A DNA stretch of 64,000 nucleotides from an uncultured Candidatus Saccharibacteria bacterium (GTDB taxonomy: Bacteria > Patescibacteriota > Minisyncoccia > UBA6257 > 2-01-FULL-56-20): NCBI GenBank assembly GCA_964568535.1, contig CAZMPQ010000001.1:6183-70182 (forward strand). The letters run 5' to 3'. The position numbers were made by a program, and so were the translations under genes. The notes under the pieces were generated by a model. It had not been told where the DNA came from, made no database searches, and saw only the letters and a list, made by a program, of their open reading frames with translations. Below, piece by piece: positions 1-48,284 of this stretch; position 1 is the first letter of the stretch; each line of letters starts with the position of its first letter.

Positions 1-934
1 ACAGGTTATTCTGTCTTGCGACCGCGGCGAGCGCTTTTTTGATGGCTGCATGTTTCTCGGTCGGCGCAAAGAACATCACGCACCCTCCCCCGCCGGCCCC
101 AAGAACCTTGCCGCCCCATGCGCCATTGGCCATTCCCGCGTTGTAATACTCGTCGATGACGGAATTTGATGCGTTGGTCGTCAGGCTCTTCTTCTTGAGC
201 CATCCGTCGTGCAGCATCTCGCCCATGCCTTTCAGATCGCCCTTCACGAGCCGCGCTTCAAATTCCGGCACGAGGTCGGCCATCGCCTTGAGCGTCTCCA
301 TCTTCTTTGCAATATTCGCTTTTTGCTGCGTCAGGACGCTTGATGCATCCCGCGTAAGCCCCATGAAGAACACCAACATGTTTTGCTCAAGCGTTGAACG
401 CACTTTATAGTCGATCAACACCGGCCTCGCATCCACCGTGCCGTTCATATTGAACTGGAATACATTGAACCCGCCGAACGCAGCTGCATATTGGTCTTGT
501 TTTCCGATAGGTTCTCCGACAAGGTCTATTTCAAGCCGGCTCGCCGCCTCCGCGGCCTCTCCTTTGCCGATCTTCTTCCCCTGGTAGGCATGGAGCGCTT
601 TGACGAGCGCCACAGAAAAACTCGACGAAGAGCCCAGCCCGGTCTTTGATGGAAGCGGCGCGAATGATGCGATCTCAATGTTGCGCTCGATGCCCATGTC
701 CACGAGCGCGGCCTTGATCCTCGTATGACGGAGATCCTTGGCATAATCCACCGTTTCCGAAGAGCTGTAGCGCGCCGAAACTTTGTCCACCAATGGGGTC
801 CGATTTAAAACCACATAGACATATTTATCGATAGCTGCGGAAATAACGCGCCCGGGCGAGCGGCGATAAAAATCGGGGAGGTCCGTTCCCCCACCGACAA
901 AGCTGATGCGCATAGGCGCACGGGCAACGATCAT
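1..934 (-). CDS. GHMP-family sugar kinase, HddA/WcbL-like D-glycero-alpha-D-manno-heptose-7-phosphate kinase; partial, the 3' end runs off the window
   Basis: Manual reverse-strand translation. The ORF track does not list it because no stop codon lies in the window. It begins MIVARAPMRISFVGGGTDLPDFY (the GHMP motif I signature), then GLGSSSSF (the phosphate-binding loop), and ends ...GAGGGGCVMFF. Confidence 0.6.
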   Translation of the reverse strand, partial: MIVARAPMRISFVGGGTDLPDFYRRSPGRVISAAIDKYVYVVLNRTPLVDKVSARYSSSETVDYAKDLRHTRIKAALVDMGIERNIEIASFAPLPSKTGLGSSSSFSVALVKALHAYQGKKIGKGEAAEAASRLEIDLVGEPIGKQDQYAAAFGGFNVFQFNMNGTVDARPVLIDYKVRSTLEQNMLVFFMGLTRDASSVLTQQKANIAKKMETLKAMADLVPEFEARLVKGDLKGMGEMLHDGWLKKKSLTTNASNSVIDEYYNAGMANGAWGGKVLGAGGGGCVMFFAPTEKHAAIKKALAAVARQNNL

Positions 935-969
935 AACATCACTAATCTAACGGAAAAGTCCTGCTTTCG

Positions 970-1839
970 TCAATCTGAACGCCGCACCTCGCCAGATAAG
1001 AACTTCTTTACCGGCCACAGGAGCGCATGTACACGCCTGCGGATGCCGAACGGAATGACCGCATAACACAGTTGCAATAGATGAATGAAAAAGCCGTGCA
1101 AAAATCCCGGATACTTTTCGCGATACCGCCAGAGGACCCGAAATGCTTTTACCGTATGCGGCAACATATCTTTCGCAGAACGATTCAGCCCGGTCGAGGT
1201 GTAATACGAAAAATATGCCGGGAAGTTATAGAGTTTTCCCGCAAGACCCATCTTCAGCGAGAAGTCCCAGTCCTCGTTGAAATTCAGCTCACGATCAAAT
1301 CCGCCGACGCGGCGCAACACGTCCGCGCGATAGATGCCGGTGGAAGACGCGATGGGGTTCGTGACGAGCGCCGTGCGATGAATTGCTTCGTTCGTCTCTT
1401 CTTTGAAATAACGATAGATTTCCTTGCCGTCCGGGTCCACAACGATCATTCCCCCGCCGGCACCCACATAGTCCGGATGCTCGTCCAAGAACGCAACCTG
1501 CCGTGCAAGCTTATCGTTGCCGATCCAGGCGTCGTCCGAGTCCACGCGGGCGATATACTTCCCCCGCGCGACCTCCACGCCGCGATTGAACGTATAAGGA
1601 ATGCCGCTGTTTCTGTCGTTCTCCAGATAAACGATGCGCGGATCTTGTTTTGCGTACTCCGCGACCACTTCGCGCGTATTATCTGTTGAACCGTCGTTCA
1701 CCACGATAAGCTCGAGCTCGCGAAGCGTCTGTCCCAAGACGCTCGAAATAGACTTGCCGACAAATCGCGCCTGATTCCATGTCGGCATGATGACCGACAC
1801 AACCGGCATGACGGAGTTTTCCTTTGGCGCTGTGTTCAT
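970..1839 (-). CDS. family 2 glycosyltransferase
   Basis: Carries VSVIMPTWNQ...VVNDGSTDNT...DSDD (GT-A fold, DxD). I chose the start at M37 (MNTAPKEN) because it gives an ATGA overlap with the upstream gene; alternative starts are at 1809 and 1947. Confidence 0.7.
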   Translation of the reverse strand: MNTAPKENSVMPVVSVIMPTWNQARFVGKSISSVLGQTLRELELIVVNDGSTDNTREVVAEYAKQDPRIVYLENDRNSGIPYTFNRGVEVARGKYIARVDSDDAWIGNDKLARQVAFLDEHPDYVGAGGGMIVVDPDGKEIYRYFKEETNEAIHRTALVTNPIASSTGIYRADVLRRVGGFDRELNFNEDWDFSLKMGLAGKLYNFPAYFSYYTSTGLNRSAKDMLPHTVKAFRVLWRYREKYPGFLHGFFIHLLQLCYAVIPFGIRRRVHALLWPVKKFLSGEVRRSD

Positions 1840-2810
1840 TCGTCGAGTTCGGAAAGCCTGAGTTCGCGGCGGCGGTAGTATACCTTCACCAGGATCTTTT
1901 GCACGAATCCCGCAGGCAAGATAGCGAGCGGCAGCCATACGAGCCATCCGAGCATTACGCCAAGCGGATATTCCGCGAATGCGCTCGTGATGTGGGGCTT
2001 CGCCTCAGCTCTTCGCGCGTTCATCAGATATGCAAGGCCGAGATTCAACCGATAGCGCCTTCTCTGCCGACGCATATCAACGCGCATGCGTTCCTCTGGG
2101 GTCATTTTCGCATTGAGCCGTTCTAGAACTTCTAACATCGTCTCTTTCACTTTTGGCTGGCTTTCTACTCCCTGCAGATTTGCGGTCTTCCGCATGCGCA
2201 ATTTCGCCAGGCGCTTCGACAGGAACTCAAAACGCGCGCCGCCGTGCGCAAGGCGCAGCCAGAATTCAAGATCTTCAGAACGCTTGAGGTTCTCATCGAA
2301 CATGCCGAACCGCTCGATTACCGAGCGCCGGAGCACGACCGACAGCGGCGCGATGAAATTCATGGCCAAGAGATGCGGCAGGACCTCTTCGCCGGAATAA
2401 TACTCGTAGTTCAAGCGCAATAGTGTCGATTCACCGTCCCAAAAGTGGTAGAGGTTGCAGTACGAAACATCGCACGATGGGTGCGCTGTGAGATATGCGA
2501 TCTGCTCGGCTATCTTTTCGGGCAGAAATACGTCGTCGGAATCCAAAAGCGCGATGAATTCGCCCTTACTTGCCTTGATGCCGGTGTTACGCGCGCTAGA
2601 GAGCCCTGCGTTCGCTTGGTAGATGTACGTTATCTTTTTCGCGTTGATATACGGCTCCAACACTGCCTTCGTGTCGTCGGTGGAACCATCGTCAACCACG
2701 ATAATTTCACAGTTCGGATAGATTTGCGCGAGCGCAGAGTCCACCGCTTCGCGGACATAGCGCGCTGTGTTCCACGACGGGATGATAATGGAGACAAGGG
2801 GCTGCGACAT
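1836..2810 (-). CDS. family 2 glycosyltransferase
   Basis: Carries VSIIIPSWNTARYV...IIVVDDGSTDDT...LDSDD. Confidence 0.8.
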   Translation of the reverse strand: MSQPLVSIIIPSWNTARYVREAVDSALAQIYPNCEIIVVDDGSTDDTKAVLEPYINAKKITYIYQANAGLSSARNTGIKASKGEFIALLDSDDVFLPEKIAEQIAYLTAHPSCDVSYCNLYHFWDGESTLLRLNYEYYSGEEVLPHLLAMNFIAPLSVVLRRSVIERFGMFDENLKRSEDLEFWLRLAHGGARFEFLSKRLAKLRMRKTANLQGVESQPKVKETMLEVLERLNAKMTPEERMRVDMRRQRRRYRLNLGLAYLMNARRAEAKPHITSAFAEYPLGVMLGWLVWLPLAILPAGFVQKILVKVYYRRRELRLSELDE

Positions 2811-2817
2811 GGCTCAC

Positions 2818-3873
2818 TTACCGCAAGGGTAATTCGTTCATGATGGCGCGGAAGCGTTCTTCGTAGGTATGTTCGCGCAGTGTTCGTTCATACGCGGCTC
2901 GCGCCATACGCTCGCGCTCTTCCGGACGTTCGAGATAATAGCGAACTTTTTCCACCAATTCTGCATGCGTGCGGAAGAACGCCATTTCGCGGTCGGGCTC
3001 GTAGTATTGCTCCACGCCAGCGGTGTATCCGGAAACGACGCACGCGCCGCACGCCGCGAGCTCAAAAATACGTGCGTGAATATGCGACTCAGCGAAATGC
3101 CACCACGCCTGCGCGTTCCGCACGATGTGGCGGTCCGGCACGATGCGGTTCCGCGATTTCATGAAGAATAGTCGCCCGAGCACCCATGGATCAAACCGCG
3201 ACGGACGGTCGTTCAGGTTGAGCATCATCTTGCTGCGACCGATGATGTCCATCATCTGCTTGGGCGATATGCGGCCCGATGGCCAGCCGAGCCCGAACGC
3301 CTCCACGCGAAATCCTGCGCTGCGCAACGCTCGCACCGCCTCTTCTCGCGGCCGTTTCCACTGCCCGATAAACGCCACGTCGATATCGCGTTCACCGGTC
3401 GTTTCAACCGGCCAGTAGGCGTTCGGATTCGCCGCCCATTGCGAGAGAAAAATATTCTGTATGCCAGCATTCTTGTACCATGCGACCGCCTGCGGCGCCG
3501 TCGTCACCGCGAGCGTAAAATATGGGGCCCAGATGCGCGAATAGTTCCAAAATCGCCAGTAATCGTCCGCAAACCATGCAACGGTCTTCGTTGTTGTTTC
3601 CTTGCGAATACGCTCCAGAACTGCCGGCTCGCATTCATCGGTATACATGAACACGAAAAGCATCTCCGGCTGTTCACGCTTTACCAAGTGCCACAATTCT
3701 TCGTTCCACATACGCTTGCCCATCGCGAGGATGCGGTCGAACGGGTGCGCAAGAACAGAAACGCCTGGCATACGCGCAAGCGTTCCCAGAAAATTCACTT
3801 GCTCAAAGCTCGGCGACCGCTTCGGGTCGTAGTTCTCCGCTTCGATACCGGCATAGAGGACCTTCATGCGCAC
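2818..3873 (-). CDS. CgeB-like glycosyltransferase (DUF3880 / Glyco_trans_1_2)
   Basis: The C-terminal region FELAACGACVVS...YYLERPEERERMARAAYERTLREHTYEERF is typical of the CgeB family. It is a paralog of the 23153..24202 gene. Confidence 0.6.
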   Translation of the reverse strand: MRMKVLYAGIEAENYDPKRSPSFEQVNFLGTLARMPGVSVLAHPFDRILAMGKRMWNEELWHLVKREQPEMLFVFMYTDECEPAVLERIRKETTTKTVAWFADDYWRFWNYSRIWAPYFTLAVTTAPQAVAWYKNAGIQNIFLSQWAANPNAYWPVETTGERDIDVAFIGQWKRPREEAVRALRSAGFRVEAFGLGWPSGRISPKQMMDIIGRSKMMLNLNDRPSRFDPWVLGRLFFMKSRNRIVPDRHIVRNAQAWWHFAESHIHARIFELAACGACVVSGYTAGVEQYYEPDREMAFFRTHAELVEKVRYYLERPEERERMARAAYERTLREHTYEERFRAIMNELPLR

Positions 3874-5135
3874 ATCCCAAATAGCCCTACGGAGGGTGGC
3901 GGATTTTGTCGGACGCGCGATAACAAACGTGAAAGTTGCTTTTCAACCATAGGCACTGAAATTGCAGCGATGCATGGCGATGGTTCGTTTGGCGGCAAAT
4001 CGCGGCCACATCGCCAATTATCACCGTAACACGGAGACAGCGCAGCAACCCACACATTCGTATCCGGATAGCCATAGTCCTGAAACATACCGTACTGCCC
4101 ACCTCCCGTAACGCAGATGGAGGGGTGCTTGATTGCTACTGCAATGTGTATGCTCGCAGTGTCGTTCGTAAGAAGCACTATTGATCCTCGCATAAGCTCA
4201 ACGAGCTCCCCAAGGGATGTTTTTCCCGTGATATCCATGTGTTTTTCTTGAATAAGACGCGTGACCGCCGCAGATGCCTCCGCATCGGCAAATGCACCCA
4301 CAAATACCGGCGTAATCTTTCGTGCTGAAAGAATCCTCGCCATCGCCGCAAATCGATCCTTAGGCCACCGCTTATAGGCAACGCTTGCACCAACGTTCAC
4401 TAAGGCGTAGTCCTCACCAACAAGCCCGAACTTCTCACGCGCCGCAACCGTATCGCCGAGGCGTGGCAATTCGGTTGCGTAATCTTGTTCTGCAAAACCT
4501 GTTGCTCCTTCATAGATGATGATGTAGTGACTGATGACGTGTGGTAAGCGCCCACTGGGGTCACTATTATCCGAAATCGCGGGGATGACTTTCGTGTATC
4601 TGGGTAGATACTGGTCACGGACGATACGTAGGTTGCGCGACTGCTGAAAGTCAAAGGGATTTCGATATTCGAACTTCATACCCTCATACCCGACAACCTC
4701 ATTTGCTCGGAGCGATGTGGCAATTATCTTGCCCATAATTTCTGAAGCGCTGAAATCATGATTGATGACTCGCGAAAATCCACGGCGACGGAGATCGCTG
4801 ATTATGCGCAGACCAATCAGTGGGTTCATCGCAAATGAGGAGTATGGAACAAGCACGATGTCGTCTACATAATATCCCGCAGCAAATACCTCAAAACCCG
4901 TACCCTGTTTGATGAGCAATGTGATATGTGTGTCGGGAAAACGCCGCTTATAGTGCTTGAGGACCGATGTAAACAACACGAGGTCGCCGAGCGCCTCCAG
5001 ATTGATGATGAGCAGCCGCTTATCCCAGCCAACGCGGTTCGGCGCCGGAGCAAAAAGCGCCACGAGCGCCGCTCGGAGTGGCGTTACGAGCTTTGTTTTG
5101 ATGATGAATTTCAAAACGCTGCCGAGCATCCTCAT
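3864..5135 (-). CDS. GT9 ADP-heptose:acceptor heptosyltransferase (RfaF/RfaC-like)
   Basis: Carries LLIINLEALGDLVLFTSVLKHYKRRFPDTHITLL (N-terminal) and LLTNDTASIHIAVAIKHPSICVTGGG (GT9 C-terminal). It sits next to the heptose-nucleotide biosynthesis genes. Confidence 0.7.
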   Translation of the reverse strand: MRMLGSVLKFIIKTKLVTPLRAALVALFAPAPNRVGWDKRLLIINLEALGDLVLFTSVLKHYKRRFPDTHITLLIKQGTGFEVFAAGYYVDDIVLVPYSSFAMNPLIGLRIISDLRRRGFSRVINHDFSASEIMGKIIATSLRANEVVGYEGMKFEYRNPFDFQQSRNLRIVRDQYLPRYTKVIPAISDNSDPSGRLPHVISHYIIIYEGATGFAEQDYATELPRLGDTVAAREKFGLVGEDYALVNVGASVAYKRWPKDRFAAMARILSARKITPVFVGAFADAEASAAVTRLIQEKHMDITGKTSLGELVELMRGSIVLLTNDTASIHIAVAIKHPSICVTGGGQYGMFQDYGYPDTNVWVAALSPCYGDNWRCGRDLPPNEPSPCIAAISVPMVEKQLSRLLSRVRQNPPPSVGLFGMCA

Positions 5136-6101
5136 TTACGCAGGCCGCGCCAGCGCGCGTTTTAGTTCGCCGGCAGTGAGCGCCGTCGTTCCCTCGCGGC
5201 TCACTACGAGACCCGCGGCAGTGTTCGCGAGACGCGCTGCAACAAGGAGCGGCTCGCCCGAGGCGAGCGCAAGCGCAAGTACTGCGGCGACCGTATCGCC
5301 CGCACCCGTCACGTCGAACACCTCACGCGCGTTCGACGGAATATGCACCGCTCCCTTGCGAGCGATATCGCCCACGGTCATGCCATGCTCACCCCGCGTG
5401 AGCACTACGGACGCATTGAATTTCTTCCGAAGTGCCTCTGCTGCCTCACGGGCGGTTTGTGCCGTCGTCGCGTTTATCCCCACGAGCGCTCGTGTTTCAA
5501 CAATGTTCGGGGTGACTGCTGCGATGCCGCGGAAGAACGTGGCATGTTGGGGCTTACAATCGGCAATGATACGCTTTCCTCCAAATCGCTTGCGGAGCGC
5601 GGAAACCACACGCGGGGTCACTACTCCTTTTGCGTAGTCGGATACAACAATGAAATCAACTGGGTCGAGCCGGGCGATCTCTTTAAGCACTGCGGTCTCC
5701 GCTCCTCGAGTAAGACCCCCCGGTGTTTCATGGTCCAAGCGAAGTAATTGGTGCCTCCGCGCAGCTATGCGCGTCTTGACGGTCGTCACGCGGTGCGGGT
5801 CGCGAACTAAGTGCGTTGCGATGTTCATCGCCTTCGCGAGTCGACCGAGCTCCGTTCCAGCAGTATCATTCCCGACAACCCCAAGTAAGATTGCCTTTCC
5901 ACCGAGAGAAGCGACGTTTGCCGCCGTGTTTCCCGCGCCGCCCAGGTGTCCACTTCGCTCGCGTTCCACCACTACCGGCACTGGTGCTTCTGGTGAGATA
6001 CGCTCCACATCGCCACGCACGAACGCATCAAGCATCACATCACCAACTACAAGAATGGTTTTTTTTGTAAACTGATCGATTATGGACGTTTTTGTGCTCA
6101 T
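5136..6101 (-). CDS. hldE: D-glycero-beta-D-manno-heptose-7-phosphate kinase (pfkB/ribokinase family; equivalent to HldE domain I, i.e. HldA)
   Basis: Carries ILVVGDVMLDAFVRGDVERISPEAPVPVVV and GGAGNTAANVASLGG, with the C-terminal pfkB signature DVTGAGDT. Confidence 0.75.
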   Translation of the reverse strand: MSTKTSIIDQFTKKTILVVGDVMLDAFVRGDVERISPEAPVPVVVERERSGHLGGAGNTAANVASLGGKAILLGVVGNDTAGTELGRLAKAMNIATHLVRDPHRVTTVKTRIAARRHQLLRLDHETPGGLTRGAETAVLKEIARLDPVDFIVVSDYAKGVVTPRVVSALRKRFGGKRIIADCKPQHATFFRGIAAVTPNIVETRALVGINATTAQTAREAAEALRKKFNASVVLTRGEHGMTVGDIARKGAVHIPSNAREVFDVTGAGDTVAAVLALALASGEPLLVAARLANTAAGLVVSREGTTALTAGELKRALARPA

Positions 6102-6463
6102 GTATGTAATTGCGAATCCCCATTCGCGAGGCGATACGTATCATCTTCACGATGCTCTGTAGAGAATTCAAATACCTCGCTCTGCTCCACGCCAGTGAAC
6201 TGGTGCGGCAACCCAGGTGGGATGTGTATGGACTCCCCGGCGCGCATCATGCGGCGAATCGGCTCCGCGGGATATCCAAACGGGTAGGTATCCATCTGCA
6301 CGGCGCCGCTCTGCACATAGAACGTCTCATCCTTCAGCTTGTGATAATGGACGCTGCACCGCTTCCCCTTATCGAGCAAAAGCTTTTTCCCGCAATACTG
6401 GGGGTTATTCGCTATCCATTGTTCCTCCCCCCAACCCTTGGGATGTCGTTCGGGAGCTTCCAT
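6098..6463 (-). CDS. cupin-domain protein (possible sugar isomerase/epimerase)
   Basis: Carries WGEEQWIANNPQYCGKKLLLDKGKRCSVHYHKLKDETFYVQSG (cupin_2). I moved the start to M86 at 6463 to avoid overlap with the divergent plus-strand gene. Confidence 0.45.
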   Translation of the reverse strand: MEAPERHPKGWGEEQWIANNPQYCGKKLLLDKGKRCSVHYHKLKDETFYVQSGAVQMDTYPFGYPAEPIRRMMRAGESIHIPPGLPHQFTGVEQSEVFEFSTEHREDDTYRLANGDSQLHT

Positions 6464-6506
6464 AACGATTGTAAGAATGTCATACCTTCCGTATGATGAC
6501 AATATC

Positions 6507-7007
6507 ATGACGCACATGGCCACAAAACGCATCGTCACGCTTACCGAAGCCGCACGCATCGCGCGGCGGGCTCGTTGGGCAGGCAAGCGCGTCGTTACGA
6601 CGAACGGCTGCTTCGACATCCTCCACGTCGGCCACATCCACAATCTGGAAGCCGCGCGAGCGCTTGGCGACCTCCTCATTGTCGGCGTAAACTCCGACGC
6701 ATCGGTAAGCTCGTTCAAAGGCCCAGGGCGGCCTATCGTGACCGCGCGCGAACGCGCCGAGGTTCTTGCCGCACTTCGGCCGGTCGATTATGTCCTCATT
6801 TTCTCTGAACCGACGCCGAACCGCTGGCTCGCGGCGGTCCGTCCGCACGTGCACGTGAAAGGCGGTGATCGACCGATGAGTCAGATCGTCGAACGTGACG
6901 TCGTTCGGCGTGCCGGCGGAAAGATCGTACTCCTCAAGACCATCGCCGGGAAATCGACGACGAACATCATCGGGCGTATCGCCCGGACGTTACGAAAGCG
7001 CTCCTGA
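6507..7007 (+). CDS. hldE: D-beta-D-heptose-1-phosphate adenylyltransferase (cytidylyltransferase-like; equivalent to HldE domain II, i.e. HldC)
   Basis: Carries KRVVTTNGCFDILHVGHIHNLEAARALGDLLIVGVNSD (the HxGH nucleotidyltransferase motif). The start at 6507 is a choice; 6516 and 6438 are also possible. Confidence 0.75.
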   Translation: MTHMATKRIVTLTEAARIARRARWAGKRVVTTNGCFDILHVGHIHNLEAARALGDLLIVGVNSDASVSSFKGPGRPIVTARERAEVLAALRPVDYVLIFSEPTPNRWLAAVRPHVHVKGGDRPMSQIVERDVVRRAGGKIVLLKTIAGKSTTNIIGRIARTLRKRS

Positions 7008-10962: not shown

Positions 10963-11664
10963 TCAGAGCGTCGTCCGGAGCACGTGATACGCCTCTGCGA
11001 GCGTTCCGCCCATCTCCTTGCCATATATGCGCGCCAGGCGCTCCATATTCTCTACGCTCCGGGGAAACGGGTCTTTCCGCACCTGTGTCGTGTGGCAATG
11101 ATAAAGCTGTACTTTGAAATCCAACAAGTTGCCTTTTCCAAATTTTTCGCTCAGATCCAGATACGCGTTCGGCGTCCGCTGAGGACGGGAGCTCCAGGTA
11201 TACGGCTCAAAATATTCCAGCACGTGGTCCACGAAATGCCGCGCGGAGCGCGGAGTTGGCCGAAGTGCAGCTATGCATGCGTCGAACGTCGCGCGATGGT
11301 CCTGATTATAGCTGGACGACGCCGGCACAGCCATTATGGTGGGACGGAACTCCTCCAAGAGGTCGTCTAGGCGCTCCACGATGTCTTTCTGCGGGATAGC
11401 GTCGAGCTTTACATGGTCTTTCTGCACATACAGCACGCGCACATCCGCGCCCGTGAGCTTCTTTACCGCTTCAACCTCCTTCAAACGATCGGCTCCGCGC
11501 GTCTTCCCGGTAACAAGCTGACGGCTGTCGCCTACCCCCATGTAGAGGATAAGTACTTTTCCGCCCTCCTTCTTTACTTTGCCGATAAGCCCGCCGACGC
11601 CATCTGCTTCATCGTCAGGATGCGGAGCGACCACGAGAAGCCGCGCTGTGCGATCAATATGCAT
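10963..11664 (-). CDS. PIG-L/LmbE-family N-acetylglucosaminyl deacetylase
   Basis: Carries LLVVAPHPDDEADGVGG (the PIG-L zinc motif). I chose the start at M29; the longest ORF extends to 11748. Confidence 0.7.
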   Translation of the reverse strand: MHIDRTARLLVVAPHPDDEADGVGGLIGKVKKEGGKVLILYMGVGDSRQLVTGKTRGADRLKEVEAVKKLTGADVRVLYVQKDHVKLDAIPQKDIVERLDDLLEEFRPTIMAVPASSSYNQDHRATFDACIAALRPTPRSARHFVDHVLEYFEPYTWSSRPQRTPNAYLDLSEKFGKGNLLDFKVQLYHCHTTQVRKDPFPRSVENMERLARIYGKEMGGTLAEAYHVLRTTL

Positions 11665-11701
11665 ATGTTTTTGTATCGGGGGTGCACCCCCTGTATCTAT
11701 T

Positions 11702-12808: not shown

Positions 12809-12874
12809 GGTAGTGGTCCGAAAAATCCCACACAGAATACAACTTCTGGCGGCGTTACGTCAAGCGATTCTCAA

Positions 12875-13432: not shown

Positions 13433-13439
13433 GAAAAGC

Positions 13440-42000: not shown

Positions 42001-42139
42001 CGGTGATGTTGGGGACGTACACGGCGGCGGAGGCGAAGCTTGGAAACAAAAACGCCACCAGAGTGGCGGCGAGGAACGCGGTGGAGAGAGCAACAAGCGT
42101 TGTTCTTTGTGACGGAACGACCCTGGCGTTCCTGAACAT
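39080..42139 (-). CDS. very large secreted surface protein with the same LamG, LamG, Ig/FN3-like, beta-helix and metzincin architecture (paralog of the 27152..30328 gene)
   Basis: I chose the start at the conserved MFRNARVVP; the ORF extends to 42199 across the poly-G tract. Carries ALYHMENLTDSVTSSANRHDL...MDELFFMNARITTSTKDALWASG, ATHEIGHALGLSH, DSIMARH (the Met-turn) and FDPHRMKHVIQW. Confidence 0.75.
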   Translation of the reverse strand: MFRNARVVPSQRTTLVALSTAFLAATLVAFLFPSFASAAVYVPNITALYHMENLTDSVTSSANRHDLVNASGTTFTTGTLSNAANFASGAFLRASSSVMDLSGDFTIGFWIYPQVSLNDTPFIDRISGSSREGVYYGNTCAGSHVEFKHNNTCHTSAYTLSTNTWYWFLIARTGTNTDYYVNNSVVFPFTDSETGNISSDLCIGALGLSGGGCSSYNHAYLMDELFFMNARITTSTKDALWASGSGAEICATLGCATSSIPVISSTTQFKADGTTPLSEGATTAESTVFFKAFLNSSSSNNLMLQVELSTSTSFTNALHGTSTAVTPSSYATTTISAIPDGFWYWRGRALDTATNATSSWRQFGTDNVVDVVVETVPNPRVEVSNVVGLYHFEDTSDASGNARHLTSWGTGSTEGKLSTAGITQGSGYWTVSSSAMDLSGDFSIGFWMKPMEALNDTSLVGRTTGGTSNDAVMYGAQCAGNNFEFRHNGTCKGNFSYSLATSTWYWVTVLRSGSIVDYYVDNVRQHSFTDSATTNYSTDLQVNGLNADYKHSWHIDELFLSTSRISTSTRNALWNSGSGAEVCTTAGCGTANLLSGTITASTTWTHNLSPYIVTSTATIASGVKITVASGTVIKFKPNTSLIVNGELDVKGGALSSTLVYFTSYHDDAVGGDTNNSTTQPAVGDWGHIKFNTGASSTLVGSVVRYGGGDAASDANIYNNGGVLNIRNSDVSYAETHGLYLTAGTTTIIYASIHDNYNGVRVTSGNNVTMSSSTVFSNATAGYGALHDASGPTSTMTNNFWGGWFPLDDISTSTDNAGPYHSGQNPSGAGDDVSDYIDISPYMSAFIASPSESTWSPPGVNSSTLKMRVGSSTQYQSELIDGMSTWNASSSGYVMVVNASASSSDTWDIYVADITVDTSSWAGLWYPFVTSTAHIIFNTNGMNSYSDSQQCVATHEIGHALGLSHTEYGDSIMARHSCDYFPGILEPQTTLGILDLFNFNLLWSPSYFFDPHRMKHVIQW

Positions 42140-42165: not shown

Positions 42166-42177
42166 CCCCCCCCCCCC
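42166..42177. repeat. homopolymeric tract, C12 on the plus strand (G12 on the coding strand), 26 nt upstream of the conserved start of the 1039-aa gene
   Basis: Read directly. On the coding strand the context is GTGCGGGGGGGGGGGGTTCCTCCGTGGTATCGTTCAATCATCATG. With 12 G the tract is in frame with an upstream ATG at 42199. Confidence 0.8.
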
Positions 42178-42199: not shown

Positions 42200-43138
42200 C
42201 TATCCGCTGCTTTTCAAATACCACTCAATCGTCTTCTTCAGCCCTTCCTCAAAATCTGTCTTCGCCTTGAATCCGAATTCTTTTTCCGCGCGCGTGGTGT
42301 CCAACATTCGGCGCGGCTGGCCGTCGGGCTTTTCTGCATTCCACTTAATATCGCCTGCGTAGTCCGTAAGCCGCGCGATAAGTTCCGCAAGATTCTTGAT
42401 AGAAATTTCCATCCCTGAGCCGAGGTTCACGGGATCCGACGTATCATATTTCTCTAATGCACTTACGATGCCTTCCGCGGCGTCTTCAACATATAAGAAC
42501 TCGCGCGTCGGCCGGCCGGTACCCCATGCTTCCACGGATTTCGCGCCACTTTGCTTTGCTTCCGCAAATTTCCTGATGAGCGCAGGGACGACGTGTGAGG
42601 ATTTCGGATCGAAGTTATCTCCCGGGCCGTACAGATTCACCGGCAGGAGAAAAACAACATTCATTCCGTACTGTGTGCGATATGCGCGGGCTGCGGTGAG
42701 GAACGATTTTTTTGCGAGCCCGTAAGGCGCGTTCGTTTCTTCTGGATATCCGTTCCAGAGGTCTTCTTCATTGAACGGCACGCGTGTGTACTTCGGATAG
42801 GCGCAGATGGTGCCGAGCAGAATTATCTTTTGCACATTCGCCTTCCGCGCGGCTTCCAAAAGCCGCGCGCCCATGATCGCGTTGTCGTAAAAAAGCTCGC
42901 CGGGTTTTTCCTGGTTGTACCCGATGCCGCCCACTTTCGCGGCCAAATGGATAACCAAGTCCATCCCTTGGACGGCACGCTCGCAATCCTCGGCTTTCCG
43001 TAGGTCGTAGTCCCCCATCTGCGGGACGCGAATATCCTCGTCGCGTACGCCGCGCGCGCGGAGAACGTTCAAAATATGCGCGCCTAAAAATCCGGCGCCG
43101 CCGGTCACGAGAATTTTTTTGTTCTTCAAATCAAGCAT
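42200..43138 (-). CDS. fcl: GDP-L-fucose synthase-like (GDP-4-keto-6-deoxy-D-mannose 3,5-epimerase/4-reductase)
   Basis: Carries MLDLKNKKILVTGGAGFLGAHI, YGLAKK and NLYGPGDNFDPKSSHVVPALIRKF. I chose the start at M29. Confidence 0.75.
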   Translation of the reverse strand: MLDLKNKKILVTGGAGFLGAHILNVLRARGVRDEDIRVPQMGDYDLRKAEDCERAVQGMDLVIHLAAKVGGIGYNQEKPGELFYDNAIMGARLLEAARKANVQKIILLGTICAYPKYTRVPFNEEDLWNGYPEETNAPYGLAKKSFLTAARAYRTQYGMNVVFLLPVNLYGPGDNFDPKSSHVVPALIRKFAEAKQSGAKSVEAWGTGRPTREFLYVEDAAEGIVSALEKYDTSDPVNLGSGMEISIKNLAELIARLTDYAGDIKWNAEKPDGQPRRMLDTTRAEKEFGFKAKTDFEEGLKKTIEWYLKSSG

Positions 43139-44075
43139 GGTTCGTAAAATCGTTTTCGTTCCACGCGATGGTCTCGCGCAGGCCGTTCTCAAGTGACGTC
43201 GTTGCGCGGAAACCGAATTCACGCTCCGCGCGGCCCGGGTCTAGAATGCGGCGCATTTGGCCGTCGGGCTTCATGCTATCCCACTGCACCTCGCCGCGGA
43301 AATCCATGAGCTTTGCAATGGTCTCTGCAAGCTCGCGAATGGAAATCTCCCATCCCGAGCCGATATTGACCGGTTCCGGCTTGCTGTACCGCTCTGCCGC
43401 AGAGACGAACGCCTCGGCGGCGTCCTTCACGAAAACGAAGTCGCGTGTCGGCGAGCCCGTTCCCCACAATGTGATGGACGATGCGCCGTCGCGCTTCGCC
43501 TCAAGTATTTTGCGGATGATGTTCGTGATAACGAATCCGCGCACCGCTTCCTTGCCGGGACCGTACATGTTGGTCATCAAAAGATGCACCGCATCAAAGC
43601 CGTACTGCGCGCGATATGCCTGCGCTTGCACAAGAAGCATCGTCTTCGCCACGGAATATGCCTCGTGGAGCTCCTCGACCGGCCCGGCCCAGATATCTTC
43701 CTCGCGGAACGGCATTGGCGCTCGCGCGGGATATTCGGTGATGCTTCCGGCGGTGACGAATTTTTTGACGCCGTTTTGCCGCGCGGCCTCCATAAGCTCC
43801 ACGCCCATCACCAGATTGTCGTGGAAAATTTCCGCAGGATGTTCGCGGTGGAACTGCCCGTCGCCCGTGATGCCGGCCAAATGGATAACCACGTCCACGC
43901 CCTTCGTCACCTCGCGGCATGCAGACGCGTTCCGTAGGTCGTGCGTTTCACGCGTCGGAACGACGATGTTCTTCTCCGGCGCGCCGCGGTCTTTCAATGC
44001 CTGGACCACGTGCGTGCCGAGAAAGCCGCTCCCGCCAGACACCAGGATTTTTTTATCGCGGAGGTCAAGCATCAA
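43131..44075 (-). CDS. second Fcl-like GDP-sugar epimerase/reductase (a tandem paralog; it may act on a 3,6-dideoxy intermediate, i.e. ColC-like)
   Basis: Starts MMLDLRDKKILVSGGSGFLGTHV. It shares the same SDR fold, is about 40-45% identical to the downstream paralog, and lies 2 nt before that gene's start. Confidence 0.7.
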   Translation of the reverse strand: MMLDLRDKKILVSGGSGFLGTHVVQALKDRGAPEKNIVVPTRETHDLRNASACREVTKGVDVVIHLAGITGDGQFHREHPAEIFHDNLVMGVELMEAARQNGVKKFVTAGSITEYPARAPMPFREEDIWAGPVEELHEAYSVAKTMLLVQAQAYRAQYGFDAVHLLMTNMYGPGKEAVRGFVITNIIRKILEAKRDGASSITLWGTGSPTRDFVFVKDAAEAFVSAAERYSKPEPVNIGSGWEISIRELAETIAKLMDFRGEVQWDSMKPDGQMRRILDPGRAEREFGFRATTSLENGLRETIAWNENDFTNHA

Positions 44076-44127
44076 TGCTTTGATACTACCCCACCGAATG
44101 ATGAAAAAACAACCGTAAAAGTACGTC

Positions 44128-44162
44128 GGCCCCGGACGCGCAACAGGTGCGCAGCCGGGGCC
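44128..44162 (-). terminator. GC-rich hairpin (8-bp and 5-bp stems) followed on the minus strand by TTTTACGGTTGTTTTTT
   Basis: The sequence is GGCCCCGG-ac-GCGCA-acagg-TGCGC-ag-CCGGGGCC. A T-rich run follows in the direction of transcription of the 44169..44777 gene. Confidence 0.5.
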
Positions 44163-44168
44163 AAGTCA

Positions 44169-44777
44169 CTACTTGACGAGCTCCACGTCGTCGATGTCAA
44201 CGAGAGATGCGAACGTCTCGGTGATGAACTGCCGATGGACCTCCGGCATCGGGTCGGGAAGCCGGTCCGCTCGGAAGAACCGGCGGTGCGGCGTTTCCTG
44301 CACGGGTGCCCGCGGAACGCACTTCACGAAGAGCGATAGCGGGTTGCCGAAGGGATGCGCCGCTGCGGGGTCCGTCTCGCGCGACGGCCAGAGCATCGGA
44401 TTGGGATACGAGCTCATATAGACCACATCCACGCCGACCTCCCGCAACGCGATCGTGGAACAGGCCTCCTGGAGCGTGCCCATCACCGGCTTGTACCACG
44501 CGCCCGGGATGACCCAGTGGTCACGGAACGCCTCGGTCGCGCCGTCGTAGAACGTGAGGAGTATCTCGCGGATGTGCGGTTCGTTCGGTGTGGGCCGGTC
44601 TAGTACGAGCTCCGGCGCCCACGTGGAACGTCCCGCTTCGGCGATGCGCCAGCAGCGCTCGCTTGGAAGCAGCCCCTTGTCTCGCGCTACCTTACCGAGC
44701 AGATGGTAGAGCGCCGCCTCCTCGCCGGTCGTGAACGAACTCTTCGGATGGATCTTCTGCAGACCTTCGTCGTTCAA
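44169..44777 (-). CDS. hypothetical protein; possibly a degenerate Nudix-fold hydrolase (GDP-mannose mannosyl hydrolase-like, by context)
   Basis: Carries PGAWYKPVMGTLQEACSTIALREVGV, which loosely resembles a Nudix box. It lies between the gmd and fcl genes. Confidence 0.35.
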   Translation of the reverse strand: MNDEGLQKIHPKSSFTTGEEAALYHLLGKVARDKGLLPSERCWRIAEAGRSTWAPELVLDRPTPNEPHIREILLTFYDGATEAFRDHWVIPGAWYKPVMGTLQEACSTIALREVGVDVVYMSSYPNPMLWPSRETDPAAAHPFGNPLSLFVKCVPRAPVQETPHRRFFRADRLPDPMPEVHRQFITETFASLVDIDDVELVK

Positions 44778-44793
44778 GACGTCCTCCTTCCTC

Positions 44794-45159
44794 TCAATTC
44801 AGATGCGCCGACTCGCCAGGATGGCGGACTGCACCGTCTTCCGTTCCTTCCTGCGACACCCACCGAACGGGCCGGCGACGCCGGATCGCATCGTCAGCGA
44901 GATCCATCTTCACGATGAAGCGGACCTTTCCGCTTCCGCGCTCGGTCTCCACATCGGCCTCGAACAGCTGACCGGAGACGCTGCCGATGCAGGTATGTGC
45001 GAACTGCGTTGTGATGCGGCCATCCATCTCGTCCGTCTTCACGCGCCGAGCCGCCTTGTACTGCCGCGCCATCTCACATGCGTTCAGCATGAGGCGCTCG
45101 GCAATGCTCGGGGTGACGCACACCTCCGCCCGCAACACGAAAAACCTCTGCCAGTGCAT
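44794..45159 (-). CDS. hypothetical protein
   Basis: A 121-aa ORF with no recognisable motif. Confidence 0.3.
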   Translation of the reverse strand: MHWQRFFVLRAEVCVTPSIAERLMLNACEMARQYKAARRVKTDEMDGRITTQFAHTCIGSVSGQLFEADVETERGSGKVRFIVKMDLADDAIRRRRPVRWVSQEGTEDGAVRHPGESAHLN

Positions 45160-45211
45160 ACCTCCACCTTCCCTTCCGTAAAAAGCCGGCAGTATATTAC
45201 GATAAAAAAAT

Positions 45212-46228
45212 CTACTTTGTCAATTTTCCTCCAACTGCCTTCAATTCCGCGCGGACCATGAGCTTCACCAGGTCTTTGAACTTCGTCTTTGCTTTCCAGC
45301 CAAGCTTCGTCCGTGCTTTGCGCGTATCAGCGACAAGATGCTCAACTTCGGACGGACGGTAGTAGCGCGGGTCTATCGCCACGTACTTTTTCCAATTCTT
45401 GATACCGGCTTCGGCGAACGCGAGCTCCACGAACTCGCGGACCGTGTGCGATTCACCCGTGCCGATAACATAATCGTCCGGTTTCGGTTGCTGGAGCATC
45501 TTCCACATCGCTTCCACATACTCCGGTGCATATCCCCAATCGCGGCGCGCGTTCAGATTTCCTAGATAGAGCTTTTTGTCCAAGCCCGCTTTGATGCGCG
45601 CAACGCCTCGCGCGATTTTCCGCGTCACAAAGGTCTCGCCGCGCCGTTCGGATTCATGATTAAAGAGAATGCCGTTCACGGCATAGATGCCGTACGCTTC
45701 GCGATAGTTCACGGTGGTCCAATAAGAGAACACTTTGGCAACGCCGTAAGGGCTCCGCGGATGGAATGAGGTCGTCTCCGACTGCGGCGGCTTCGCCGAA
45801 CCAAACATCTCTGATGAAGATGCCTGATAGAACCTCACTTTCCGGCCCGTTTCCTCCTCGTAATCCTTCACCGCTTCCAAAACGCGCAGGGTGCCGATAC
45901 CCGTGATGTTCGCGGTGTATTCCGGAATGTCGAAGGACACGCGGACGTGCGACTGCGCGCCGAGATTGTAGATTTCCGTCGGACGAACTTGATGGATGAG
46001 CTTCCGGACCGTGTTCGCGTCTGAAAGGTCGCCGAAGTGCAGGTGAAATCGTGACCCAGCTGCGTGGACGTCGCGGTAGAGATGCTCAATGCGCCCCGTG
46101 TTAAAGGTGGAAGCGCGACGGATGACCCCGTGCACGTCGTATTTTTTCTTCAACAAGAACTCGGCGAGGTAGGAACCATCCTGGCCCGTGATACCGAAGA
46201 TGAGAGCGGTGCGCGAGCGGGGTGTCAT
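45212..46228 (-). CDS. gmd: GDP-mannose 4,6-dehydratase
   Basis: Carries [50 protein letters not shown] and [21 protein letters not shown]. Confidence 0.85.
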
Positions 46229-46230
46229 GC

Positions 46231-46902
46231 TTATTGCTGTGCTTGGCCGGGTAGTTGAACGGGGCCGTTTATGCGTTCGAATTCGTCCAGTCGGCGCAGA
46301 AATTCGTCGGTTGCCGGAGCCACGCGATCATCATCCGGCCAGTTCTCTACTATCTTCTCCTGCATCTCCAGAACCCCTGCCCGGTCGCCGAGCATCCGAT
46401 ACACATCAAAGAGACCGTACAAGAATTGCGGCCGCTTCGGCGCAAGCGCGATGCCGCGAAGATAGTTTTGCTTTGCCGCTTCGAGATATCGGACATCGCC
46501 TGTCCGAACGAACGCGGTCTGATACATCGTCGCGAGCACGAAGATGTTCTGTGTGAAGCTCATGCCGGTCCCCCGGTCCATAATGCTCCGGTAGTTCTCT
46601 TCGGCAAATTGCACGATGGCGGGGAGCACTTCTTTGTTCTTTTCGTTGCTCAAATATGGCGTAATACTACTCACGAGATGCCGCACCAGCTCCTCTTGCC
46701 CAATCGGAGAAGGGATAGCAAGAACGCCCGTGAATACCTCTCGAAAGCTTCCGATGGTCGTCGTTGGAGCGTTCACTGTTCGCATCCCCTTAATGAACTC
46801 CTGCGACTTGCGCATCGGCAGATAACTTCCATAGTACGCCACACCGATGACGGCCACGGAGGCGGCGAGCGCAACGAGGCGTTTTACAGCAGAGCTCATC
46901 AT
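46231..46902 (-). CDS. hypothetical membrane-anchored protein
   Basis: An N-terminal TM segment ([17 protein letters not shown]) followed by a soluble helical domain. Confidence 0.4.
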
Positions 46903-48284
46903 GATATGCGGTGGCGGTCAAAAAGGAATCCGGCGAATGCAAGGAAAAGAAACACGTTTAGGTAGATGGGTAACACATCAAAAAGGATCATCCCCTGTAC
47001 CAGATATGCAGTGGGCAGCGCCGCAAGGAGCGCGGCTTCGGCGGGCGAAAGGTGCCGCTCACCGTTCGGCAGTATGACCGCAGCACCGTCACGTATGCGG
47101 CGATAGAGCGCGTTCGCAAAGACAGCGAACATGGCGATGAACGTTCCGAACCCTACAATGCCGGTCGTCGCGAGGTAGTCAAAAACGATGCTGTGGGCGC
47201 GGTCGAACCAAGTTTCGCCGCCCGACAGCGGATCAAAGTGCCGCGAATCAAAATGTTTGTCGAACGCCATACTAAAATTCTCCGGGCCCCAACCAAATGC
47301 CGGACGCTCCAAGAAGCCGCGCCACGCTGAGCCCCAGGTCCACAAGCGCGTTTGCGCCGACTGTGCCGAGAAGGTTGTTGTGAGAAGCCGCCCAGCGGGA
47401 AGCGCCGAGATATCGTCCCGACCGGCGAAAAGTTGATGCACAATAAGGATGAGTAGGACCAGTCCCGCAATGCCGCCGAATATCCTGTTCCGCCACCGAC
47501 GGTCCAGAAGCGCATATACGATAAGGAACACAAATATGGCGGCGAGCAGTCCCAAAAACGCTCCGCGTGTCTGGCTCATAATAAAGAACACGAAAAAGAA
47601 CGCGGCGAGCGTGCCGTAGATCGCATGTCGATTGCGCTGCTTCGGCTCGGTGAGCCACAGCCATCCGACATAGAAAAGTGTGAAGAGGAGATAGGGAGCT
47701 ACGAATGCGGGGTTTCCCAGCGAGCCCTGGAACCGGCTGGATGAGAATATCGTTTTTAACACGTTCCCTGCGTTCGGATCGCTCGGAGCGTACGGTCCCA
47801 CAAATCCGGGCACAAGCGCGGCGGCGAGCAGACCATACGCAATCATGAGCACAGCAGCCACAATGGACGCGCGGAGCGCCAAACGCCAGTCCGACCATCG
47901 GTCAAAGAGCACAGACAACAGTACAAAGAACAGATAGTAATGCAGCATTTGGAACCCGCCTTCGCCGCGTTCGTAGTTTGACCAGAACGCGCCATATGGG
48001 TCGTATGCGAACACGGTCGCGAGCAGGTACGCGAGCACGAACGCCGACACCGCAATGAAGAGCGGACGGCGCGACACAGCCCGCAGCCGCTCGCCGAGCT
48101 CTCCATCCTTTGCCTCGAACGCCCACCAGAGAAGCAGGAACACCAAGCCCAGCTCGGTCATCACGCGGAAGAAGTAGTACTTCCCGCCGATGAATGGGAA
48201 GAATGTCGTGCTCATCACAACCACTACGCTGAAGAGTGCGGCGGCGGTGAAGAACTTCGCGAGGTGACGGAGCGTGATGACCAT
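46899..48284 (-). CDS. O-antigen ligase/polymerase-like membrane protein (Wzy_C family)
   Basis: About 10 TM helices with a large loop near the C-terminus; carries LWTWGSAWRGFLERPAFGWGPENF. Confidence 0.6.
   Translation of the reverse strand: MVITLRHLAKFFTAAALFSVVVVMSTTFFPFIGGKYYFFRVMTELGLVFLLLWWAFEAKDGELGERLRAVSRRPLFIAVSAFVLAYLLATVFAYDPYGAFWSNYERGEGGFQMLHYYLFFVLLSVLFDRWSDWRLALRASIVAAVLMIAYGLLAAALVPGFVGPYAPSDPNAGNVLKTIFSSSRFQGSLGNPAFVAPYLLFTLFYVGWLWLTEPKQRNRHAIYGTLAAFFFVFFIMSQTRGAFLGLLAAIFVFLIVYALLDRRWRNRIFGGIAGLVLLILIVHQLFAGRDDISALPAGRLLTTTFSAQSAQTRLWTWGSAWRGFLERPAFGWGPENFSMAFDKHFDSRHFDPLSGGETWFDRAHSIVFDYLATTGIVGFGTFIAMFAVFANALYRRIRDGAAVILPNGERHLSPAEAALLAALPTAYLVQGMILFDVLPIYLNVFLFLAFAGFLFDRHRIS

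Follow-up and report, generated by a model that had tools for sequence, protein, structure and literature searches.

The closest described counterpart of the system considered here is the Mtz-Tim pair of Listeria monocytogenes, in which a secreted metzincin is accompanied by a lipoprotein resembling the tissue inhibitors of metalloproteinases (TIMP) and encoded immediately downstream; the pair acts on the cell wall, Mtz cleaves Tim, and the bacterial TIMP fold has so far been reported in Listeria only (PMC8235301). A 64-kb stretch of contig CAZMPQ010000001.1 (64,000 nucleotides, hereafter the window), from an uncultured groundwater member of the Patescibacteria or candidate phyla radiation (CPR), carries two cassettes of a similar kind, in each of which a metzincin gene is followed by a gene for a membrane-tethered protein of TIMP/NTR-like fold, both cassettes being embedded in a long island of glycan-biosynthesis genes. 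As in Listeria, the two genes form a conserved unit with products of a secreted or surface-bound type. The systems differ in that the protease here reaches about 1000 residues and carries LamG and beta-helix modules, that the pair sits inside a glycan locus, that the partner is tethered by a signal-anchor in place of a lipobox and additionally bears Cys knots and a Pro/Thr-rich (PT-rich) tail, and that the window is free of phage or mobile-element context, of an integrase and of a cI/cro switch. A tblastn search with the partner against 50,697 phage records gave no match, the same type of search of the phage collection with the protease returned only a weak match to a Lactobacillus phage Zn-protease (E = 1e-3), and a BFVD fold search returned generic OB folds only. 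The reading we favour, to which we give somewhat better than an even chance, is that the glycan island and a glycan-addressed protease with its cognate NTR-fold partner are functionally coupled.

The AprA-AprI pair of Pseudomonas is a second precedent that the cassettes resemble, but there and in other protease–inhibitor systems the inhibitor has a different fold. In Pseudomonas AprA-AprI and the Inh proteins of Erwinia and Serratia it is an eight-stranded barrel, and in the snapalysin-sermetstatin pair of Streptomyces it is SSI-like, whereas the partner described here is NTR/OB-like. Unlike the serralysin-type systems, the window has neither RTX repeats nor type I secretion genes, and any inhibition would be a predicted activity. 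Compared with the animal TIMP/NTR proteins (TIMP-1 to -4, agrin NtA, PCOLCE, complement C345C), the partner lacks Cys1, the conserved disulfides and a Pfam match, and its domain is placed after a membrane anchor and a variable linker, so that no free N-terminus would be available unless the protein were cleaved. Literature searches found no description of a protease/partner system of this type in CPR bacteria. The organism, as one of these, presumably lacks an outer membrane.

The surroundings of the pair belong to a better known category, the variable surface-glycan loci exemplified by O-antigen, capsule and slg clusters (Geobacillus stearothermophilus, Paenibacillus alvei, Tannerella forsythia; compare PMC6120980). 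The gene set of the window is that of such a locus, with clustered nucleotide-sugar genes, many glycosyltransferases (GTs), methyltransferases, a Wzy_C protein, and a conserved flank beside a variable interior. Two differences stand out: slg-type clusters may adjoin genes for glycosylated surface proteins, whereas the window embeds protease/partner pairs and not an S-layer protein, and neither an initiating transferase nor a flippase or ABC exporter was found in the window. A third comparison concerns homopolymeric tracts. Such tracts serve as contingency loci for surface genes in Neisseria, Haemophilus and Campylobacter, and the likeness here lies in G8, G9 and G12 tracts just upstream of paralogous or orthologous surface-protein genes, where they are the sole long G/C runs and differ in length between copies; we know of no slipped-strand switching described in CPR bacteria. 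The features on which the argument turns are the following.

1..48284, minus strand: co-oriented glycan-biosynthesis island of 45 open reading frames (ORFs), extending past the left edge of the window
24405-30328, minus strand: cassette 1, between the genes for a sugar C-methyltransferase and a CgeB-like GT
27152..30328, minus strand: long metzincin 1 (1058 residues), with signal peptide, LamG domain, linker, second LamG domain, right-handed beta-helix and a snapalysin/MMP-like (MMP, matrix metalloproteinase) catalytic domain at residues 830-1058
26134..27117, minus strand: partner 1 (327 residues), with membrane anchor, NTR/TIMP-fold domain (about residues 55-180), two knots and Pro/Thr-rich tail; GC content at third codon positions (GC3) 0.45
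24782..26137, minus strand: short-form metzincin paralogue (451 or 441 residues), beta-helix and metzincin domain alone, no signal peptide, HELGHALGLAHS intact
24340..24752, minus strand: decayed end of a tandem partial duplication, a 115-residue membrane ORF (GC 0.35, GC3 0.39) followed by a partner relic
38053-42139, minus strand: cassette 2, between an Fcl-like gene and a sulfatase-family gene
39080..42139, minus strand: long metzincin 2 (1019 residues, P0002), same domain order, 45% identical to the 1058-residue paralogue
38053..39054, minus strand: partner 2 (333 residues), architecture of partner 1, to which it is 48% identical; GC3 0.49
30350..30358, minus strand: G9 tract (coding strand), roughly 21 nt in front of the start codon (ATG) of long metzincin 1
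42166..42177, minus strand: G12 tract (coding strand), roughly 26 nt in front of the start codon (ATG) of long metzincin 2
48305-49831, minus strand: RNase Y gene (rny), conserved housekeeping boundary, 20 bp upstream of the Wzy_C gene

Both long metzincins begin with a Sec-type signal peptide (…PASA/TV and …FASA/AV, read off the sequence without a predictor) and match just three kinds of Pfam model, LamG_3 (two domains), Beta_helix and metzincin, with scores of 30.3 and 28.8 bits for Peptidase_M10 (cutoff 24). The HExxHxxGxxH zinc motif is present in all three window copies as HELGHALGLAHS or HEIGHALGLSHT. Its residues H358, E359, H362 and H368 are invariant in 36 sequences (alignment A5), G365 is invariant in the alignment of seven close homologues (A3) and nearly so in A5, and the methionine of the Met-turn (M375, motif G-N-x-M, seven residues after the third His) is invariant in A3. 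The C-terminal module has the metzincin catalytic fold, its profile matching MMP catalytic domains in the PDB, and the AlphaFold2 (AF2) model of the protease has a predicted local distance difference test score (pLDDT) of 81; the most conserved positions of the family sit in the metzincin site. Serine and threonine together make up 24-26% of the long proteins. With the profile of the C-terminal module at least 190 relatives were found. The apparent orphan status of long metzincin 1 in a full-length search (4 matches) was a sensitivity artefact caused by low-complexity words, and P0003/L006 and P0004 were set aside as relatives, since they share beta-helix or LamG parts alone. Beside the beta-helix/dockerin protein P0003 lies a gene (L006, 8311-18285) for a 4075-residue protein with Big_2, He_PIG and CARDB repeats, which is unrelated to the window cassettes.

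The beta-helix resembles those of capsule depolymerases, alginate lyases/epimerases and VexL. It also recurs in a sister architecture, in which the same N-terminal beta-helix module is joined to Peptidase_M23, a peptidoglycan endopeptidase, in place of the metzincin domain (P0041-P0044, P0047, P0055, P0058, P0066, P0071, P0074, P0076, P0082, P0084, P0085 and P0091-P0093). Since the same module is thus combined with a peptidase acting on peptidoglycan, cell envelopes are indicated as the targets of these proteins.

The partner proteins follow a common plan, evident from an alignment of ten members, of an N-terminal anchor, a variable linker, a conserved domain of about 125 residues, helices, a Pro-rich linker, two knots and a Pro/Thr/Ser-rich tail ending in S-T-G-Q or similar. 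The AF2 model of the core (pLDDT 80-88) is an OB barrel with helices in NTR topology; TIMP-1, meteorin and complement C345C are among its matches in a fold comparison, with generic OB folds scoring lower over fewer aligned residues. Each of the two knots is a Cys-bounded segment of calcium-binding type (C-x-D-G-x-D-N-D-x-D-G-x-x-D-x-x-D-P-x-C) resembling the calcium-binding C-rich domain of teneurin (7plp, E = 1e-4), and in a PDB profile search with the partner the knots alone were matched. Cysteines are confined to these C-terminal knots, and the NTR-like domain contains none in any of the ten family members. Without the N-terminal cysteine of inhibitory TIMPs the partner is TIMP-like at most by analogy and is not a member of that family. 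By the same analogy it would be a cognate protease-binding protein, whether inhibitor, regulator or substrate. When its profile was compared with 1.84 billion representative sequences, only about 35 of the top 150 matches covered the NTR-like domain, the search being swamped by Cys-knot repeat proteins, so that the size of the family is known just roughly. The DNDxDG Cys knot is itself a widespread repeat of very large proteins (e.g., P0143-P0148, 900-3400 residues with up to 30 repeats), and L011-L015, matching through the knot motif alone, were set aside as partner relatives.

Protease and partner behave as a unit. A search with a profile of the partner alignment (E-values from 3e-100 to 7e-33) placed the partner gene directly after the protease gene at every locus examined, namely twice in the window, three times in CAZWBU010000010.1 (hereafter CAZWBU), and in L008, L016, L017, L018 and L019/L020. 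The intervening gaps in the window are 34 and 25 bp; in L017 the adjacent partner (376 residues) is followed downstream by a second partner-like ORF (284 residues). Over nine pairs, identities in the C-terminal protease module correlate with those of the partners (Mantel r = 0.68, p = 0.001), while the nearest relatives of the N-terminal parts of the proteases differ from those of their C-terminal halves. The 1019-residue protein and the CAZWBU protein at the same position after fcl illustrate this, being 59% identical in the N-terminal part, where they are closest relatives, and 41% identical in the C-terminal part, where they are not. In both long genes GC3 falls from 0.65-0.83 to 0.37-0.55 at about residues 650-800 and stays low through the partner genes (low-GC3 stretches 27152-28400, 39080-40200, 26134-27117 and 38053-39054, all on the minus strand). 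Taken together, the correlated identities, the distinct N-terminal ancestry and the shared drop in GC3 indicate that catalytic domain and partner evolve jointly and can be exchanged as one unit, as would befit a protease and its cognate binding protein. The cassette genes are mosaic and may be a recent import from relatives of lower GC content (0.48-0.52). The partners also vary with location, the PT-rich tail being present in those linked to the island and absent from those outside it; partners of the latter kind, in L018 and L019/L020, lack the Cys knots as well.

Linkage of the cassettes to glycan genes was followed through relatives of the window. The protein encoded by rny shares a cluster (at least 90% identity) with one from a Candidatus Parcubacteria metagenome-assembled genome, and the closest relatives, L001 (JGI 3300043432) and L002 (GCA_964367535.1), have rny genes 90-92% identical to that of the window. 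Together with L003-L005, from Hainich groundwater, they share the housekeeping flank and the run of genes for rny, Wzy_C and a 223-residue protein (L003 also gmd), and past the fcl genes their content is no longer the same. The nearest relatives of the cassettes themselves, defined by at least 40% identity in the C-terminal module, occur in four other assemblies (CAZWBU, L008, L016 and L017), and in all four the cassette lies inside or directly beside the orthologous glycan module, in shuffled gene order; the module compared comprises Wzy_C, the 223-residue unknown (unk223), gmd, fcl, the C-methyltransferase, the small ORF with the sulfatase, the CgeB-like GT, the methyltransferase-like gene, the membrane protein TM491 and GT2. 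The order in CAZWBU is unk223, Wzy_C, unk223, gmd and fcl, followed by a block of long protease, partner, short protease, partner and LamG fragment, and then by an epimerase, a TM491-like gene, GT2, the C-methyltransferase and a second block of long protease and partner. The cassettes of CAZWBU thereby occupy the same two positions as those of the window, though its Wzy_C protein is just 50% identical. In L008 the cassette lies directly upstream of the C-methyltransferase and a sugar-nucleotide block, and in L016 directly upstream of Wzy_C, unk223, gmd, a NUDIX gene, fcl and the C-methyltransferase. In L017 the neighbours of both window cassettes have orthologues (fcl 70%, C-methyltransferase 60%, sulfatase 51%, CgeB-like GT 68%, methyltransferase-like 52% and TM491 37% identity) in a different order, with the cassette after the methyltransferase-like gene. 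That linkage within the sub-clade survived such extensive reshuffling argues against coincidence. The earlier note on this DNA had named glycan islands free of cassettes, with the cassettes elsewhere, as what would make the link coincidental; synteny among the near relatives shows no such arrangement.

Some features of the cassettes point to ongoing change. The short protease copy shows 71% protein identity to the C-terminal part of the 1058-residue protein and 80% DNA identity to the long gene, and the relic of a partner 3' end at 24340-24391, which would encode …PPIHVTSTPSAPAPSSTSQ*, is 83% identical to 26154-26205. The pattern of this duplication is repeated in CAZWBU, where long gene, partner, short gene, partner and fragment succeed one another. 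Apart from the G9 and G12 tracts upstream of the long genes, no G/C run in the 64-kb window reaches nine nucleotides; CAZWBU carries a G8 tract in the homologous leader (L007, 6777-6784), and a C10 tract lies upstream of the L018 gene (9981-9990). Placement and length suggest that the poly-G tracts are candidate slipped-strand phase-variation switches of the long protease genes. Hairpins around the tracts were dropped from consideration, since they fold no better than shuffled sequence.

The island itself was delimited from a six-frame ORF list with Pfam and NCBIfam scans. It contains 45 ORFs on the minus strand, about 33 of them with glycan-biosynthesis domains, and the majority of its gene junctions are shorter than 60 bp or overlapping. 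The sole plus-strand gene of 1..48284 is hldC (6507-7007), whose score for the NCBIfam rfaE domain II model is 183.4 bits against a cutoff of 181.5; it overlaps the longest minus-strand cupin ORF (6098-7007 region), an overlap that a cupin start at 6463 removes, and its end overlaps the convergent HldD-like gene by 18 nt. The earlier note had described more than 40 consecutive minus-strand genes with hldC as the only exception, nearly all glycan-related and mostly overlapping or tightly spaced, and this observation holds, as do the positions it gave for the cassettes, which are exact. Its length of about 48 kb has to be read as a minimum, since the window edge truncates the leftmost gene, which codes for an HddA-like kinase. 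The sharp switch it placed at rny exists in gene content but not in strand: just 20 bp separate the co-oriented rny and Wzy_C genes, and the change of strand falls in the divergent rny/gpmI region (49832-50023). The proteins it called giant, with 1058 and 1019 residues, are better described as large. The GC skew keeps a single sign over the window, housekeeping part included, except in windows over both cassettes, so that leading-strand bias alone could account for the co-orientation.

Signals of transcription qualify a further claim, that the whole island is co-transcribed. Promoter-like sequences were scored out of 12 matches with a threshold of at least 10, and all six minus-strand hits are intergenic, the gaps between genes accounting for about 4% of the sequence. 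Predicted promoter-like sites lie around 49950, 45200, 44090, 38010, 22130, 20150, 16820, 15650 and 14700; total numbers of promoter-like and terminator-like hits are close to shuffle expectation, and only their placement in the gaps is informative. An intrinsic terminator-like hairpin is followed by a promoter-like sequence, and the two lie near an HD-domain gene:

15681-15713, minus strand: terminator-like hairpin with a 14-bp stem, 11 GC pairs and a T-tail, after the 109-residue ORF
15735-16064, minus strand: 109-residue ORF, upstream of the hairpin
15735-16765, minus strand: the same ORF, with a strong ribosome-binding site, together with a gene for an HD-domain protein (220 residues, GC3 0.83), inside the island

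Promoter-like sites in the gaps together with a strong terminator make several operons likelier than one transcript, and the island is probably a series of co-oriented operons starting directly downstream of rny. Tight spacing speaks for the earlier claim, which is weakened by the internal promoter-like sites and the terminator at 15681-15713. An Rfam scan of the window returned a single RNA gene, tRNA-Leu(CAG) at 54960-55042 on the plus strand, in the housekeeping part and not at the island border. Also in the window, an isoleucyl-tRNA synthetase gene (58609-62112, minus strand, 1167 residues) has a His_Phos_1 domain inserted at residues 509-668, in the middle of the catalytic domain; the leucyl-tRNA synthetase of L018 has a weak Ser_hydrolase insertion.

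The glycan genes fall into blocks, given here from the left edge towards rny.

1..7901, minus strand: heptose block, with an HddA-like GHMP kinase (cut), two GT2, a CgeB-like GT, a GT9 heptosyltransferase, and HldA-like, cupin and HldD-like genes
10963..15636, minus strand: amino/deoxy-sugar block, with a PIG-L deacetylase, a PseB-like 4,6-dehydratase, RmlC, an RfbH/DegT-like protein and an epimerase
16844..19106, minus strand: first GT2 (245 residues, E = 4e-27) and a multi-pass GT-C-like protein (514 residues; weak GT87 match, E = 9e-4)
19119..24202, minus strand: epimerase, UDP-glucose dehydrogenase (truncated), RmlB, FkbM methyltransferase and CgeB-like GT_b
30381..34123, minus strand: sugar C-methyltransferase, GT10 fucosyltransferase-like protein and a methyltransferase-like protein of 465 residues
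34178..36432, minus strand: second GT2 (243 residues) and multi-pass membrane protein TM491, a pair kept in L001, L002, CAZWBU and L017
36429..38003, minus strand: sulfatase-family enzyme (465 residues) and the 58-residue ORF preceding it
42200..48284, minus strand: conserved core beside rny, with the Wzy_C protein, the 223-residue membrane protein, Gmd, two unknown ORFs and two Fcl-like reductases

Overall the GT set comprises five GT2, a GT4, a GT9, a GT10 and two CgeB-like proteins, and the modifying enzymes are two FkbM methyltransferases, the sugar C-methyltransferase and the sulfatase-family enzyme. NCBIfam cutoffs are passed by Gmd (516 bits, cutoff 415), RmlB (398, 365), RmlC (189, 156) and the HldC domain; the two Fcl-like proteins, the PseB-like and RfbH/DegT-like proteins, the HldA-like protein (316 versus 345) and the HldD-like protein (247 versus 275) remain below theirs. 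The Wzy_C protein (46899-48284, 461 residues) matches PF04932 with 67.1 bits against a cutoff of 31.7 and is predicted to be a polymerase, a ligase or an O-oligosaccharyltransferase, three roles that the domain does not distinguish. From their domains, the two proteins of 16844..19106 probably make and use a polyprenyl-phosphate sugar for extracytoplasmic glycosylation. In TM491 an N-D pair after the first helix is invariant; neither TM491 nor the 514-residue membrane protein could be assigned through PDB or Pfam. The L017 orthologues of CgeB-like GT_b, the C-methyltransferase and the methyltransferase-like protein are 68%, 60% and 52% identical, respectively.

Two smaller elements of these blocks may be added. 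The UDP-glucose dehydrogenase-like ORF (20179-21147, minus strand) has N-terminal and central domains without the C-terminal UDP-binding domain, and, overlapping its neighbour ORF by 145 nt, may be truncated or decaying. An ORF of 57-59 residues (…EQLKALGYI…) lies directly upstream of the sulfatase-family gene in three genomes (window 37827-38003, minus strand; L001 15618-15797; L017 4258-4431), and the 58-residue version in the window is preceded by a promoter-like sequence (TTTACA-17-TACCAT, 38010-38038) that is kept in L001.

On the favoured reading, the island would be the principal locus for envelope glycans in a bacterium of Parcubacteria type (CPR/Patescibacteria). Its operons would make a GDP-6-deoxyhexose of the fucose type, a dTDP-6-deoxyhexose, ADP-heptose and an amino-dideoxy sugar, to be methylated and then assembled by about a dozen GTs, with the extracytoplasmic steps falling to the two GT2/GT-C-like pairs and the Wzy_C protein. 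The lectin-like LamG domains and the polysaccharide-type beta-helix of the secreted protein would address its C-terminal zinc protease to a glycan-covered surface, where the membrane-anchored NTR/TIMP-fold partner would bind it and, by inhibiting or regulating it or by being processed, protect or tune the producing cell. The module would most likely be kept within the fucose-type glycan set because its carbohydrate-binding parts recognise the glycan, because the neighbouring GT2/GT-C-like pairs or the Wzy_C protein attach that glycan to the PT-rich tail of the partner, or for both reasons. It would be an accessory module, cleanly lost in places, duplicating and decaying in tandem, and probably switched in expression by its poly-G tracts.

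A number of observations weigh against such coupling. In L001 the two fcl-like genes lead straight to the small ORF, the sulfatase, the TM491 homologue and GT2, and 55 bp stand in place of window positions 38019-42214 (cassette 2 and its leader), a clean 4.2-kb indel; L002 likewise has no cassette after fcl. As the flanking glycan genes of L001 are otherwise intact, the glycan pathway is independent of cassette 2. Distant members lie among housekeeping genes (L018, 31-40% identical, and L019/L020, 34% identical), the linkage sample consists of six contexts that are phylogenetically non-independent, and the low GC3, fitting a recent import, would allow the island to be a mere tolerant insertion zone. 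On the glycan side, Pfam scans of all window ORFs revealed no Bac_transf, Glycos_transf_4, Polysacc_synt or ABC domain; because the island continues beyond the left edge, genes for the initiating phosphoglycosyltransferase and for a Wzx flippase or ABC exporter may be located elsewhere than in the window. A GT-C role for TM491 would likewise be a prediction that sequence databases do not support. As for the partners, Pfam gives zero matches even at E-values up to 1, NTR and TIMP models included, the N-terminal Cys1 and the disulfides that define inhibitory TIMPs are absent, and many NTR modules serve for binding and not for inhibition. On joint gain and loss, for which the earlier note had proposed a comparison of synteny, the outcome is divided, cassette and glycan genes being kept together in four assemblies and cassette 2 being absent at its site from L001 and L002. 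The cassette-glycan linkage is real in the sub-clade, yet dispensable. A transposon-like insertion of the cassettes was also considered and rejected, as direct repeats flank neither of them. In L019 (6279-14342) a protease (914 residues), a partner (316 residues) and a second protease (692 residues) are followed further on by another partner (246 residues), and this array adjoins DsbD/thioredoxin and CAP-domain genes, outside any glycan locus.

Several of these points would be expected if there were no functional link, the glycan locus being a hypervariable zone and the module an independent effector, directed for instance against a host wall and reading host glycans. The clean indel relative to L001, the differing island content of close relatives, the foreign-looking GC3 and mosaic ancestry of the catalytic-plus-partner unit, the distant members among housekeeping genes, the beta-helix/M23 sister architecture and the action of Listeria Mtz-Tim on cell walls (PMC8235301) all agree with this explanation. 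What it does not readily accommodate is the position of the cassettes in the five nearest assemblies, where, despite shuffling, each of the six sites is at most two genes away from the same set of orthologous glycan genes, since the island takes up a small share of a small genome and chance capture of all six would be rare; nor that window and CAZWBU share both positions at 50% Wzy_C identity, and that partner architecture correlates with location. We regard an absence of functional link as unlikely, while giving it real weight.

The earlier note had preferred a different picture, a single surface structure of glycan and large proteins in the form of a glycosylated S-layer or adhesin coat. On such a view the cassette proteins would be the structural glycoprotein and the island a dedicated glycosylation cluster, comparable to the slg clusters beside S-layer genes in Firmicutes. 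The recurrent linkage to the glycan module would suit it, as would a Wzy_C protein from the O-oligosaccharyltransferase domain family together with two GT2/GT-C-like pairs, the Ser and Thr content of the long proteins, and Pro/Thr-rich tails that are found on the island-linked partners and not on those outside. Yet Pfam scans of the cassette proteins detected no SLH or other cell-wall anchor domain, and their conserved core is an intact protease site with an NTR-fold partner, that is, a metzincin and NTR/TIMP-fold pair free of S-layer-type domains. The pair moreover occurs outside glycan loci in distant relatives, cassette 2 is cleanly absent from L001 and L002, and short, signal-less and decaying copies are ill-suited to an essential coat, so that the coat now appears quite improbable and the proposal is not supported in that form. 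Still less probable, in our estimate, is that the long proteins are the glycan-processing enzymes of the island, with the beta-helix acting as depolymerase, lyase or epimerase and the protease and partner serving maturation or anchoring. Its resemblance to capsule depolymerases, alginate lyases/epimerases and VexL, the LamG domains and the position of the genes among sugar genes would favour such a role, but lyase or hydrolase catalytic residues were not identified, the most conserved positions are in the metzincin site, the cassette is dispensable in close relatives, and the fusion of the same beta-helix to M23 elsewhere suggests a role in targeting.

Beyond functional coupling at this locus, one may conceive of a widespread and undescribed counterpart of MMP-TIMP in the Patescibacteria, a secreted, glycan-addressed metzincin that is restrained by a membrane-anchored NTR-fold partner or processes it, and that in one sub-clade would be genetically coupled to glycan type, switched by slippage of poly-G tracts and diversified by recombination with adjacent silent C-terminal copies, serving as a programmable surface weapon and immunity module in episymbiosis; this we consider speculative and rather unlikely as a whole. 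Variable surface-glycan loci are already known, and for metzincin/TIMP-like pairs there is one precedent. New are an unannotated family of NTR-fold partners, moderately widespread in Patescibacteria, the fusion of the NTR-fold domain to calcium-binding knots and a PT-rich tail, its recurrence in the glycan module, and the poly-G tracts and mosaic structure of the cassettes.

For CPR/Patescibacteria a life attached to other microbes is assumed, and very little is known of their surface molecules. The locus offers a concrete and testable picture of such a surface, a variable glycan island with a conserved protease/partner pair travelling in it. Soberly read, the analysis corrects the S-layer idea and establishes the cassette-glycan link as an evolutionary fact rather than a coincidence. 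Should the partner prove to inhibit or regulate the protease, the logic of MMP and TIMP would be more ancient, or more convergent, than has been supposed. If the lectin and beta-helix modules read the island's own glycan, they would represent a new mode of surface addressing for bacteria without classical anchors, and if the poly-G tracts act as switches, phase variation would be added to the repertoire of a lineage for which no case has been described.

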